Of a DNA stretch of 64,000 nt, positions 9,138-14,165 are shown piece after piece. Positions within the stretch are counted from its first letter, which is position 1, and every line of letters begins with the position of its first letter. The notes under the pieces are model-generated. The model was not told the origin of the DNA. It made no database searches and saw only the letters and a program-made list of their open reading frames with translations. The DNA comes from Escherichia phage TH12: sequence record MT446390.1; one strand, 5' to 3'. The position numbers were made by a program, and so were the translations under genes.

Positions 9138-9410
9138 ATGAATAAAGACATTGAAATCGTACGTGAAATTATTACTATTGCTTCTATTTTGATTAAATTC
9201 TCTAGGGAAGATATTGTTGAAGACCGAGCAAATTTCATCGGATTCTTGAATGAGATTGGAATTAAAAAAGATGGTCGGCAGCTAAATCAGAATTCGTTCA
9301 GAAAACTAATTACAAATTTAACTGCCGAAGAAAAGAAAACACTGATTAGTGAATTCAATGAAGGTTTTGAAAATATTTATCGCCATTTGACGATGTATTC
9401 TAACAACTAA
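9138..9410 (+). CDS. asiA: anti-sigma70 factor AsiA
   Basis: 90 aa; MNKDIEIVREIITIASILIKFSREDIVEDRANFIGFLNEIG matches recalled T4 AsiA (90 aa). Confidence 0.9.
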   Translation: MNKDIEIVREIITIASILIKFSREDIVEDRANFIGFLNEIGIKKDGRQLNQNSFRKLITNLTAEEKKTLISEFNEGFENIYRHLTMYSNN

Positions 9411-10082
9411 TTATTTAGCCCGCCCTAATATCCTTGCTGCTTGGTTGCATATTGCAGCCAAGCGTTCTTCATTTAGCACATCCGATCCCTTATACCAATA
9501 CATAGAAACAGTTCCCGCATATATGTTATCCAAATTGAAGTAAGGACAACTATACATATACGCCAGTTCCGGAGTTTTTGATTTGGTAGGTAAGAAAGCA
9601 AAATCTGTTTTAGAAGTAAAGTGAAGTCCACTTAAATGGACCGAATATTCTGCTGTCGTTTTATCAACAGGAAATCCTCCCATAGATTTTTCAGTTACTG
9701 TGCTAGGTAACTTACCTTCATACGCAATAAGGTCGACGAAATAATTTAGATTTTTAGGTCTGAAAGAATACACCGAACTAAAATCCGCCCTTGATGTGAC
9801 GTGGACTATTTGTAGTTGTTCTAAAGCCGCAGATTCAAATCGTGTATTTCTTTCTTTTTGAATTACTTCTGTGTAAGTATCATATTTCGACCTCACGTAA
9901 TAATCCATAAAAATATTCCCTTTGTACCATATTAGTGCCATTAGGAACAAAAGAACTACAACAGCAACTCTTGAAATAAGAATATTTCCAGAGGCGTTAT
10001 CTTTGAAAATGCGGTCTAGCAACCCAAATAAAATATCACTAGGCGAAAATGATACTTTTGGTGCTGCCATATTACCTCCCAT
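9411..10082 (-). CDS. t: holin T
   Basis: 223 aa; single N-terminal TM plus large periplasmic domain; matches recalled T4 T holin. Confidence 0.9.
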   Translation of the reverse strand: MGGNMAAPKVSFSPSDILFGLLDRIFKDNASGNILISRVAVVVLLFLMALIWYKGNIFMDYYVRSKYDTYTEVIQKERNTRFESAALEQLQIVHVTSRADFSSVYSFRPKNLNYFVDLIAYEGKLPSTVTEKSMGGFPVDKTTAEYSVHLSGLHFTSKTDFAFLPTKSKTPELAYMYSCPYFNLDNIYAGTVSMYWYKGSDVLNEERLAAICNQAARILGRAK

Positions 10083-10089
10083 TTATCAA

Positions 10090-10097
10090 TATTTATA
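10090..10097 (-). promoter_or_regulatory. late promoter TATAAATA for t
   Basis: Minus-strand TATAAATA about 10 nt upstream of the RBS GGGAGG/ATG of t. Confidence 0.5.
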
Positions 10098-10115
10098 ATT
10101 GAGAGGTATTATCGT

Positions 10116-10895
10116 TTAAATCCAGGAGCCGTAGATTGTGCCTGTAGCACCCCATGACGGTGAACTTCCGAATACTGCTCTGCCAGGAGCACCGCCGCCA
10201 GATCTAGATAAGTGATTACCCCATCCATCTCCGCCCCGACCTCCAGCATCCCCGCCATTACCACCGCCGAATTGGGAAGTGTAACCGGCGCCGCCCGGGG
10301 CGTCATAACTAGCATTACCACCAGGCCAATTAACGCCGCCTCCGCCGAGGCCAAATGGTCTACCACCACCGCCACCTGCTGTAGCATTTGGCGCCCAGCT
10401 ATTCTGTAATGACACTGCACCACCTCCGCCACCGCCTGATGCAATAACGCCATAGTTCCAAATACGAAGTCTTCCGCCGATATCATTTTGGATTACATCG
10501 CCACCATTAGTGCCTGGGTTTCCGTTTACAGTACCGTTACCACCTCGTCCCCACATATGAACTCCGCCATGAATATTCAAAGTAACATATTCATTTGGCG
10601 TATCGCCATACATAAAGAATAATGGAACATCTTTACTATATGATACCAAATTTCCGGTGATATTAAACACTATAGGTGCACTACCTGCCTCAAAACATCT
10701 ATCTCGGAACCATTGACCATTGAAGTTATGGTCTGCTCCAAGTGTGTGAATTATTTCTCTTGAACGGCCCGCGAATTGGGACATCCATGAAGGGTTTCCT
10801 AAACGAAGTTCCCTTGAAGCAGCCGTCATCCATCTTTGCCCCGTTTCAGCAACGGCTGAAGTCCCAATCCAACCAGGGATTCCTACTACTGCCAT
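10116..10895 (-). CDS. 38: long tail fiber adhesin gp38, T2/T6 type with glycine-rich motifs
   Basis: 259 aa; N-terminus [11 protein letters not shown]...RWM...[43 protein letters not shown] and poly-Gly blocks (GGGGGG, GGGGG, GGGG) typical of T2-like gp38 adhesins. Confidence 0.85.
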
Positions 10896-10925
10896 ATAAA
10901 CCTCCAGGGCCCGAAGGCCCTTTTA

Positions 10926-13900
10926 TTATTTTATCAATGATTTAATTAATGCTTTCAATTCGGCAATTTCAGATTTCAATTCCTTGATTTCATCTGTATG
11001 CTCGTTTATTGCAGCTGTATTTAAACCAACAATACCGTTATAGTTCAAACGAAGCAGTCCGGTCTCTTTATCTTCAGAAACAAGTTCAGGTAATACTTCT
11101 TGAACTTCCTGAGCAATTAAACCTGCGGACGGTTTAACTTCGTCTGTAACAGAGTTTTTAAGCAGATAAGTATAACCGCCCAATAGTTTAGATTTCTCTT
11201 GAGCGTTCTTAATAAGCTTAATTTCCGACTTACAACGAATATCAGAACGAATATAAACGTCGTTAACATCAATGTTATCACGAACATACATACCTGCATT
11301 ACAGTGGAAGTTAACATCACCGAATGTCTGAGCTAAACCAGGTCTAAAACTAAACACACCTTGGCCGTTTGCATATGCGTTGAAAATACCATCGTTTTCC
11401 CAAAGCAAACCGGTATCGTTATCTCCAAGTACAATACACGGCCCGCCCCATGCAGGGTCACCACCACCAGCTGATACTCTACTGCTCTTAAGTAAGCTTG
11501 GAGCATAAAAAGTGCCGTTATGATGGAATTCATATACAGCTTGTGGGTCGTAACCGTTTTCCTGATTACCTACACGAATAATACCTTGTGCCCATGTATT
11601 AGTAATGCGTCGCATACCAAAATCTACACCAGATATGTATCCTTCATTAGTAATACCGGATTTTCCTTTAATAATAGGATAATAACTATCATTACCAACA
11701 TTACCAAAATCTACAAATACCGGTGCTTCTTGATTCCATTGATTTCCCCAACCACCTCCCTGGTGTGCGGTCCATTGTGTACCGTTTATATGGAGGCGGT
11801 CTCTATTAAAATTAAATGTTCCTTGGCCTTGAGGAGAAAGTGATATTTCTCCGTTATTTGTTATATATACACCGCCTTGTGTAACATAACTGTAAAAACC
11901 TAGACCATTGTCGGCACCGCCTTTACCAATATACCAATTATTGACCCCGGCCGTATCGGAACGAATAAATGATGAATCACTGGCCAAAGGAGGATTAAGA
12001 ACTATTCCAGCAGCATCTTTATTAATCCAAAGAGTGCCGGTCATCGTATCACCTTCTTTGGCAACACGAGTAGCTATTGCATCGCGAATATTAGTTACGT
12101 CGCCTGCAGAAGTAAACGTTTTCCAAATATCCGAGAAAATATTACCATTACGAGCAATAGCAGCTTCACCACCACCGACCAGAACATTATCAGGGAAATT
12201 AACTGTACCATCCATATTAAATCTTGATGTATGGCCTTGTGAACCATCTTCTTTCAGATGATGAATAACGAATGTACCTGATTCAATTTCGGTACCTAAA
12301 GACCAAACAGATTTACCGTTTAAAAACTTCTGTTTAACAATAGGATAATATTTGCTTACAGCATCATCATCAATTTCCTGGAAAATAGGAGCCGCTTGAG
12401 CATATTGAATGTCATAACCGCCGGCACCCGCTCCATGACCAACAAATTTAATATAACCGTTAGCAGCGAACGTATTGTAACTTGATTGTAAATCTGGAAT
12501 AGTAACTTTACCAGTATCTAAAGCCATACTAAATGGGCGAAGTGGACCAATATCGCCATCTTTGCCTTCGCCATAAGCAGTTGGAATAATATGAAGACTT
12601 CCTTCTGAACGTCTAAAAATGGCTCCATAATCTGCGTTCCAAATACGAAGAGCATTCACTGCTCCAGATGAAATTTCACCTGTTGTGTGAACTCCTCTAT
12701 CTCCAGCAGTAACACCAGATGATTCAAATGAACCATTAACGTTCATTTCTACTTCGCCAGTAGTAAGTCTTTGAATATAGCTCATCCAGCTAGTTGCATC
12801 AGAAATTTCCATAATGTTTTTACGGATACCTCCGCTTGGATCAACAAACGTATTACCCCAAACTTTAATATCCATATTATCAACCGAGCTGTATCCTGTT
12901 GTGTTGCCTCTAAACATTAGTGTAGAAGAATTATTTCTACCATCTATATTAACAGAACCGCCAATAACATCAATATTACCTGGAGTAACTAACAAACCGC
13001 CGTGAGTATTAATGTTTGTAGTACCCTTACCGCGAAAATAATGATGATAGTTACCGCCTTGATAATATCCTAAAAGAGTTTGACCGTCACCGTATGCGTT
13101 ATTATCATGGTAAGTAACAACAGTAGCCAAAGCATAGTTTTCTGTCGGTGGCGTTGTCATAAGAAGCCCATCTGGAGAATAACCCATAACCATTTTTCTA
13201 AGGCTTTGTGTTTCTGCAGGGCCGTAGATGAAAGTTCTTGTTCCATTGTTTACTGTATGGAAATATCCATCCTGGTGCCATTTTAACCCGGTGTCATTAT
13301 CGCCAATAGCAATAGAACCTTTACCTAAGGCTGAATATGTCATAGGACTTGATTCCATACCTACTGCAATTGAATGGCCTGCTTGAAGCCCACCGGAATA
13401 AGAAAATGACAACATGTAATCAGTAGGGGTTGAACCAGAATACCAACTGATGCCGTTATTTTCACAAATTTCATGGAGCATTGCGGCCGCCGGGTCGGTA
13501 CGTACGACACGTAAATTATTTTTATCTGTGTTAGAATTATTATTTGCTAATGAATAGATGTCATAATCACCGGCCTTCTTCCCGTCTGTAATGACTTTGT
13601 CAGTCAAAATCTGAGGAGTTGACATAGATTTCCGTGCCGATACTTCAGGTGAAATAAATTGTCCATTGCCTGAAAATGCATAAATGCTTTCGCTACCAGC
13701 GGCGTAGTCTTGAACCCTGATATTAAGTACTTGTGTAGTTAATCCATCATTAGCCGGGGCATAAATGATTCCACGTTCGCGGCTATTGCCATCGAAAAAA
13801 CGAACATGTGCTGTATCTGAACTTTTTGTAATAAGTTCACCGCCTTCAGTCATAATCTGCCCAGCGGCAATAATATCACGAGTTACTCGAGCAATACCAG

Positions 13901-14165
13901 TTAAATTAAAATTACCTGTCTGAGTGAAGGTGCCATTTAAAGTATAATCGCCGGTTTGGTTATAATTACCTGTATGAATAACATTCCCGTCAATACTACC
14001 GCCTTTAGCAAAACCTAGATCAATAATATTTCCTTGGTCATCTTTAGTAAAAAGTACACGGTCTTTTAAGTTTATAGCCAATTCACCTTCGGCTAATACT
14101 GAAGCGGCAGGACGTGCTCCTGCAGTTTTGCTTCTTTTAAATTGTATTTGTTTTAAAGTAGCCAT
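10926..14165 (-). CDS. 37: long tail fiber distal subunit gp37 (with C-terminal intramolecular chaperone-like domain)
   Basis: 1079 aa beta-rich fiber protein at the gene 37 position; C-terminal ~106 aa resembles the self-cleaving chaperone domain of fibers/endosialidases. Confidence 0.9.
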   Translation of the reverse strand: MATLKQIQFKRSKTAGARPAASVLAEGELAINLKDRVLFTKDDQGNIIDLGFAKGGSIDGNVIHTGNYNQTGDYTLNGTFTQTGNFNLTGIARVTRDIIAAGQIMTEGGELITKSSDTAHVRFFDGNSRERGIIYAPANDGLTTQVLNIRVQDYAAGSESIYAFSGNGQFISPEVSARKSMSTPQILTDKVITDGKKAGDYDIYSLANNNSNTDKNNLRVVRTDPAAAMLHEICENNGISWYSGSTPTDYMLSFSYSGGLQAGHSIAVGMESSPMTYSALGKGSIAIGDNDTGLKWHQDGYFHTVNNGTRTFIYGPAETQSLRKMVMGYSPDGLLMTTPPTENYALATVVTYHDNNAYGDGQTLLGYYQGGNYHHYFRGKGTTNINTHGGLLVTPGNIDVIGGSVNIDGRNNSSTLMFRGNTTGYSSVDNMDIKVWGNTFVDPSGGIRKNIMEISDATSWMSYIQRLTTGEVEMNVNGSFESSGVTAGDRGVHTTGEISSGAVNALRIWNADYGAIFRRSEGSLHIIPTAYGEGKDGDIGPLRPFSMALDTGKVTIPDLQSSYNTFAANGYIKFVGHGAGAGGYDIQYAQAAPIFQEIDDDAVSKYYPIVKQKFLNGKSVWSLGTEIESGTFVIHHLKEDGSQGHTSRFNMDGTVNFPDNVLVGGGEAAIARNGNIFSDIWKTFTSAGDVTNIRDAIATRVAKEGDTMTGTLWINKDAAGIVLNPPLASDSSFIRSDTAGVNNWYIGKGGADNGLGFYSYVTQGGVYITNNGEISLSPQGQGTFNFNRDRLHINGTQWTAHQGGGWGNQWNQEAPVFVDFGNVGNDSYYPIIKGKSGITNEGYISGVDFGMRRITNTWAQGIIRVGNQENGYDPQAVYEFHHNGTFYAPSLLKSSRVSAGGGDPAWGGPCIVLGDNDTGLLWENDGIFNAYANGQGVFSFRPGLAQTFGDVNFHCNAGMYVRDNIDVNDVYIRSDIRCKSEIKLIKNAQEKSKLLGGYTYLLKNSVTDEVKPSAGLIAQEVQEVLPELVSEDKETGLLRLNYNGIVGLNTAAINEHTDEIKELKSEIAELKALIKSLIK

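Follow-up and report, generated by a model that had tools for sequence, protein, structure and literature searches.

Organisation of the gene 38 locus

The window analysed here is a 64,000-nt stretch of DNA from Escherichia phage TH12 (MT446390.1). Genes 37, 38 and t follow one another on its minus strand, gene t being the holin gene (Pfam Phage_holin_T, 5.6e-89), and the same order, 37-38-t, is found in PECP20, T2, T6 and S16. The coordinates of the features are collected in Table 1. The closest genomes are those of PECP20, Shf125875 and AlbertHofmann, which are 95-97.5% identical across 92-97% of the window's first 25 kb. The G+C content of the window is 37.8%, the corresponding values being 0.377 for Mosigvirus (BASEL table) and 0.354 for Tequatrovirus such as T2 and T6; a Mosigvirus-like phage rather than a Tequatrovirus would fit.

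The open reading frame of gene 38 agrees in coordinates and in length with the 259-aa gp38 given in a preliminary description of this DNA. The protein becomes rich in glycine in its C-terminal part, glycine making up 35% of residues 111-259 versus 11% of residues 1-110. Three polyglycine blocks had been singled out in the preliminary description and all of them are present, GGGGGG at residues 154-159 (10419-10436), GGGGG at residues 174-178 (10362-10376) and GGGG at residues 184-187 (10335-10346). However, three blocks understate the pattern, as there are eleven additional GG or GGG runs and about ten glycine motifs, in a region that begins at about residue 116. The DNA is also locally GC-rich, as had been remarked, with a G+C fraction of 0.575-0.605 over 10100-10400 (200-nt windows) versus 0.32-0.40 in the flanks and 0.378 in the window as a whole. 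This rise is due to the glycine codons of gene 38, which are mostly a mixture of GGC, GGT and GGA, and no homopolymer of G or C is longer than 4 nt.

Repeats of GGN are free of stop codons in all six frames, which explains the spurious open reading frames lying over gene 38 on the same strand as well as those on the opposite strand. The spurious frames had been described as antisense. Two of them are, but the largest in the interval, of 125 aa, shares the strand of gene 38 and is read in a different frame. Real overlapping genes were considered for the frames on either strand, and the 125-aa frame was rejected as spurious because it is not kept open in T2, T6 and S16, in which the longest open stretches are 53, 89 and 47 codons, respectively.

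Table 1. Features of the gene 38 region. Positions are those of the window.
Feature	Position	Strand	Basis
Gene 38, putative long-tail-fibre tip adhesin	10116..10895	-	259-aa ORF, ATG start, stop codon 10116-10118
N-terminal attachment domain of gp38, residues 1-42, with W9, W22 and W37	10770..10895	-	Pfam Gp38_N
Glycine-rich specificity region, residues 116-238	10182..10550	-	Entropy profile, AlphaFold2 model, Foldseek
Predicted receptor loop A, residues 122-127, TVNGNP	10515..10532	-	PP01 mapping; high entropy at 122-130
Variable segment, residues 160-173, containing predicted loop B (163-172)	10377..10418	-	Entropy, PP01 mapping
Predicted loop C, residues 186-190, GGVNW	10326..10340	-	Entropy, PP01 mapping
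Predicted loop D, residues 205-209, YTSQF	10269..10283	-	Entropy, PP01 mapping
Predicted loop E, residues 223-231, DGWGNHLSR	10203..10229	-	Entropy, PP01 mapping
g37-g38 spacer	10896..10925	-	Hairpin AGGGCC-UUCG-GGCCCU (10906-10921), Shine-Dalgarno GGAGG (10901-10905)
Gene 37, distal half-fibre subunit, 1079 aa, putative docking partner of gp38	10926..14165	-	PHROG 1699, E = 0
C-terminal intramolecular chaperone of gp37, residues 974-1079, 106 aa	10929..11246	-	Peptidase_S74, DVYIR/SD motif
Overlapping ORF, 125 aa, largest in the interval	10109-10486	- (other frame than gene 38)	ORF list
Antisense ORFs over gene 38	10212-10409 and 10742-10945	antisense	ORF list

Family membership and predicted fold of gp38

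Gp38 matched Pfam GP38 (PF05268) with 2.5e-83 and 279.7 bits, residues 47-259 aligning with the profile from end to end (1-218/218), and Pfam Gp38_N (PF21721) with 8.2e-21 and 74.2 bits over residues 1-42. The curated Pfam cut-off is 25 bits for each of these families and is exceeded in both cases. PHROG 2056, annotated as 'tail fiber protein; host specificity', was matched at 1e-109, this and the GP38 match being far beyond chance, while NCBIfam gave no match either to gp38 here or to gp38 of T4. A protein search found 174 homologues of gp38 and PF05268 was present in every one of the best 120 of the 174 (120/120). The only solved structures matched by sequence were 9v85 (1.4e-73), a GFP fusion with the receptor-binding domain from gp38 of PP01, and chain D of 6f45 (2e-48, full length), which is S16 gp38 complexed with gp37. 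The exact 259-aa sequence is present on 10 contigs in NCBI, ENA and Logan, and the 90% cluster to which it belongs counts 123 members, RB51, RB68, phiC120 and FL31 among them.

An AlphaFold2 model of gp38, built on 111 sequences (110 homologues plus gp38), had a mean pLDDT of 86.6 and a pTM of 0.80. Confidence was lower in the first 20 residues and in loop B, where the mean pLDDT was 63 over residues 161-170. A Foldseek search of the PDB with the model found 9v85_C (E 6.6e-26, target-normalised TM 0.91, rmsd 1.5 Å, 217 columns) and 6f45_D (E 1e-21, TM 0.82), and no other PDB chain gave E <1, the next match being at E = 2.5. The predicted fold of gp38 is a beta-helix plus a polyglycine-II sandwich, like that of 6F45 chain D and 9V85.

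The labels carried by the homologues of gp38 are inconsistent and include 'long tail fiber assembly chaperone/catalyst', 'tail protein and peptidase' and 'hypothetical protein'. One representative of a homologue cluster (P0026) is assigned to Bacillus cereus. Another homologue (P0079, 303 aa) has a Peptidase_S74 segment fused to GP38, probably a gene-calling error across the g37-g38 junction.

Conserved scaffold and variable loops

The three tryptophans of the attachment domain are invariant across 12 reference adhesins including that of S16, and at least 90% of the 111 sequences retain W9 and W22. In S16, three conserved attachment-domain tryptophans fill hydrophobic pockets on the gp37 tip (PMC6851490).

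Residues 116-238 had a pLDDT mostly above 90 in the AlphaFold2 model and contained no DSSP helix or strand. This region is predicted to consist of about ten glycine motifs forming a polyglycine-II sandwich that bears the variable loops. The motifs GRGGNG at 116-121, GG at 131-132, G154-G159, GGGGGRPFG at 174-182, G212-G221 and G235-G243 are invariant or present in at least 90% of the 111 sequences. Column entropy in the same sequences peaks between the glycine motifs, at residues 122-130, 160-173, 186-191, 203-211 and 223-234, and the most variable 10-residue block of gp38 is 161-170 with a mean entropy of 2.46 bits. The preliminary description of variable segments separated by glycine blocks is borne out, the 110 homologues varying mainly in five loops between the motifs.

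Loops A to E were placed by carrying the loops of the PP01 crystal structure (PMC12892980) through the alignment. The study of that structure makes loop E the chief determinant of specificity in PP01, and it reports that models of the PP01-OmpC complex computed without restraints placed gp38 at wrong sites (PMC12892980). The arrangement seen here is the one already published for gp38, first as five GRMs and four HVSs (PMC3157838) and later, from S16, as ten PGII helices with five loops at the distal end (PMC6851490).

The partner protein gp37 and the g37-g38 junction

Gp37 matched Pfam Gp34_trimer and Peptidase_S74 (residues 974-1029) and has no Collar domain. Its sequence DVYIR/SD at 969-975 (the slash marking the cleavage position) aligns with NVYIR/SD in T2, DVYIR/SD in T6 and NVS/SD in S16. 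The cleavage site has been proven in S16 (NVS/SD) and has also been given for the fPS phages (PMC7917993). T4 gp37, in contrast, has Collar and Phage_fiber but no Peptidase_S74 and ends in a His-rich needle. Judging by its Peptidase_S74 domain, which T4 gp37 lacks, and by the DVYIR/SD motif, the partner protein is likewise of adhesin-type design. Its chaperone is predicted to be cut off after DVYIR973, exposing the face on which gp38 would dock.

The end of gene 37 (10926) is separated from the start codon of gene 38 by 30 nt. This spacer contains a hairpin with a 6-bp GC stem and a UUCG tetraloop, and GGAGG and then the ATG of gene 38 follow directly. Folding of the 60-nt junction gave a z-score of -1.21, thus the hairpin is not singled out by thermodynamics alone. 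Equivalent hairpins are found at the same place in T2, T4, T6 and S16, with different stems and with loops of UUCG, UUUG or UACG, and it is this conservation with compensating changes which supports the hairpin. Read on the plus strand, it resembles an intrinsic terminator facing the converging early genes.

Gp38 as a probable tip adhesin

[quoted passage not shown] Gp37 would trimerise and its 106-residue C-terminal intramolecular chaperone would be removed after DVYIR973. One gp38 would dock on the exposed tip of the gp37 trimer via its N-terminal helical attachment domain with the conserved tryptophans. A small beta-helix would be built from the middle of gp38 together with its extreme C-terminus, and from this beta-helix about ten glycine-rich motifs would project and pack as polyglycine-II helices to give a three-layer sandwich. 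Contact with the receptor would be made by five short loops at the sandwich's distal end, and the OmpF-class loop set would make OmpF the primary receptor. Docking, cleavage of gp37 and receptor binding are carried over from the homologues in this scheme, and none of the results speaks against an adhesin. The gp38 family, its fold, the design of glycine motifs and loops, and the OmpF specificity of this binding domain are already published.

The preliminary description had called gp38 a T2/T6-type adhesin and not a T4-type chaperone. The adhesin type stands on the matches to Pfam GP38 and PHROG 2056. The alignment with T2 and T6 which had been suggested as a check gave 49% identity to T2 gp38 across the full length (BLASTP, 2e-49) and 66% identity to T6 gp38 in the reference alignment, in which PP01 gp38 is 66% and S16 gp38 49% identical. 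The opposing idea is that gp38 is an assembly chaperone of T4 type, like lambda Tfa, which serves the folding of gp37 and is absent from the virion. Its gene name, its location between 37 and t as in T4, and the many GenBank homologues labelled 'long tail fiber assembly chaperone/catalyst' all point that way. However, gene number and place between 37 and t are the only things that T4 gp38 (NP_049864) has in common with gp38 here. Similarity to T4 gp38, named beforehand as the finding that would tell against an adhesin, was looked for with BLASTP and the best match to T4 gp38 (183 aa, NC_000866) had E 0.94 over 14 residues, which is no real alignment. T4 gp38 is not glycine-rich and has no match to Pfam GP38. 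It falls in PHROG 105, 'tail fiber assembly', with further matches to PHROG 7290 and 1807, a list disjoint from that of gp38 here. The partner proteins differ too, in that gp37 here has an intramolecular chaperone whereas T4 gp37, with its Collar domain and His-rich needle, itself bears the receptor-binding tip. A T4-type chaperone can thus be given almost no credence. The evidence from gp37 also bears on a milder version, in which gp38 first helps the gp37 tip to fold or to trimerise and later remains bound as the adhesin, and in this respect the words 'not a chaperone' are somewhat too sharp. T2-type gp38 has been described as a chaperone prior to staying at the fibre tip (PMC7917993). Given that gp37 here has an intramolecular chaperone of its own, lessening the need for another, and that amber mutants in T6 gene 38 gave morphologically normal virions which were unable to adsorb (PMC3157838), such a dual role is possible but on the whole unlikely.

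The N-terminal part of gp38, considered by itself, would also suit a short adhesin of RB43 type, a fusion of the attachment domain with an unrelated domain for specificity. Residues 1-87 of gp38 match PHROG 1121, 'tail fiber adhesin' (1e-23), and the tblastn matches in Pseudotevenvirus, Klebsiella and Cronobacter phages span just the first 55-71 residues. The C-terminal 213 residues, on the other hand, fit the Pfam GP38 profile over its whole length and fit the solved adhesins, and an RB43-type protein is therefore scarcely believable.

Predicted receptor

T6 gp38 is of the same family, with the same gene position and glycine scaffold, and is identical at 35/46 N-terminal residues and 61/69 residues of the beta-helix. 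T2 gp38 shares family, gene position and scaffold as well but its beta-helix part is far more distant (25/69 identical). The specificity loops of both T2 (FadL/OmpF) and T6 (Tsx) are unlike those of gp38 here. PP01 and S16 gp38 share its three-part architecture, in which an attachment domain and a beta-helix are combined with a polyglycine-II sandwich bearing five loops at its distal end, but they bind OmpC, and only 2-9 residues per loop-containing segment match PP01 and 0-6 match S16. As judged from its sequence, gp38 is in the RB51/Bas46-type OmpF class and is not near T2 (FadL) or T6 (Tsx) in its specificity loops.

Within that class the likeness is very close. Gp38 of the OmpF-dependent ChristianSchoenbein/Bas46 (BASEL supplementary table) agrees at every one of residues 37-259. 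Residues 116-259 are identical in fPS-2 save for one ambiguous base in the fPS-2 record, and they contain one difference in each of AlbertHofmann/Bas47, AugustSocin/Bas38, fPS-90 and RB51 and four differences in FL33. Bas47 and Bas38 are OmpF-dependent (BASEL table), with complementation by ompF shown for Bas47. The receptor of fPS-2 and fPS-90 is OmpF plus the LPS core (PMC7917993), RB51 requires OmpF, FhuA and the complete LPS core (PMC3157838), and FL31, FL33 and FL34 are OmpF-dependent (PMC12032242). It has also been found that the receptor is predictable from gp38 phylogeny (PMC12032242). Because the binding domain is identical or nearly identical to that of gp38 from OmpF-dependent phages, OmpF is predicted as the primary receptor, which we consider very probable if gp38 is indeed an adhesin. 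Besides OmpF there is probably some reliance on the LPS core. The co-requirements reported for OmpF-class phages vary among studies and comprise FhuA, TolC and the LPS core.

The gp38 family as a whole uses Tsx, OmpA, OmpC, FadL and LPS, and one of these, or LPS alone, might be bound instead of OmpF. One to three substitutions can alter or widen specificity (PMC3157838), close relatives have been isolated on O157:H7, Shigella and Yersinia, and some OmpF-class phages additionally need FhuA, TolC or LPS core. Against this, the beta-helix and loops (37-259) are identical to those of the OmpF-dependent Bas46, residues 116-259 are 0-1 residue away from five other OmpF-dependent phages, and the loop-segment identity to T6 (Tsx), PP01 and S16 (OmpC) and T2 (FadL) is mostly below 50%. 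The per-segment identities include gap columns in their denominators and the explicit lists of substitutions were relied on instead. A receptor other than OmpF is accordingly improbable. The reach of the OmpF prediction is a separate matter. The relatives with this binding domain were isolated on K-12, O157:H7, Shigella and Yersinia, and single-residue changes in gp38 loops shift specificity, as between PST and T6 or between SV76 and T2 (PMC3157838). Identity to Bas46 therefore predicts the OmpF of K-12-type E. coli and not host range across strains.

For annotators the practical value lies in recognising that this gene specifies a separate tip adhesin and that OmpF is most likely needed; many database homologues still carry the mislabel 'assembly chaperone/catalyst' derived from T4. 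The OmpF prediction helps to foresee host range and resistance by loss of ompF, and to pick complementary phages for cocktails. Gp38 raises no new biological question, the useful by-products of the analysis being the specific receptor prediction and the caution over the labels.

Sequence conservation and mosaicism

The nearest gp38 in the phage collection is that of PECP20 (WKM80873.1, 'receptor-recognizing protein'), which is 99.6% identical with the single difference L183I. Bas38 gp38 differs by two residues and Bas47 gp38 by three. The proteins of PECP20, Bas38, Bas46 and Bas47 all have 259 aa and their genes are in the same order. Compared with PECP20, Bas38 and Bas47, gene 38 shows synonymous changes and one to three substitutions (at A54, S72, L183 and R220), whereas Bas46 gp38 carries different, T6-like first 36 residues.

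Over codons 116-259, comparison with six relatives gave 10-22 synonymous and 0-1 non-synonymous differences, and comparison with FL33 gave four non-synonymous ones. Such an excess of synonymous changes indicates strong purifying selection on gene 38 within the OmpF class, the 'hypervariable' loops included. In the sequences compared, the variation of the gp38 loops thus lies between receptor classes and not within the OmpF class.

Position 183, which is L here but I in PECP20 and RB51, and position 220, which is R here but W in Bas38 and Bas47, might conceivably tune which OmpF variant is accepted (K-12, O157, Shigella or Yersinia) or which co-receptor is used (LPS core, FhuA or TolC), although we regard this as a rather doubtful suggestion. 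If true, one near-invariant module would serve two genera with different host ranges set by single residues, and those residues would belong to none of the five distal loops placed from the PP01 structure.

A sharp mosaic boundary is seen near the start of the gene. Nucleotides 61-120 (codons 21-40, 10776-10835 in the window) are only 55-58% identical to ChristianSchoenbein, fPS-2, fPS-90 and FL33, whereas most of the remaining gene 38 sequence is 88-99% identical to the same phages. To go by these alignments, the helix of the attachment domain has evidently been swapped on its own, separately from the receptor-binding part, and modular exchange of such a kind has been described (PMC3157838). 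The binding module is common to Mosigvirus (Bas46 and Bas47) and Tequatrovirus (Bas38, fPS-2, fPS-90, FL33 and RB51).

Transcription signals and the holin gene

A scan for sigma-70 promoters, which have no bearing on late transcription of T4 type, found 4 sites versus 4.8 in shuffled sequence. At 10090-10097 on the minus strand, 19 nt past the stop codon of gene 38 and before the holin gene t, there is a late-promoter box of T4 type, TATAAATA. The list of open reading frames starts holin t at 10082 (223 aa). Because the ATG at 10082 falls inside the Shine-Dalgarno region, the start is likely to be at 10070 (219 aa, MAAPKVSF...), as in the annotation of PECP20. At its other end the holin gene, on the minus strand, finishes at 9411, and an AsiA-like open reading frame on the plus strand (9138-9410, 90 aa) ends exactly there. 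The early and late transcription units thus converge without a spacer at the ends of these two genes, as in T4, T2 and T6.
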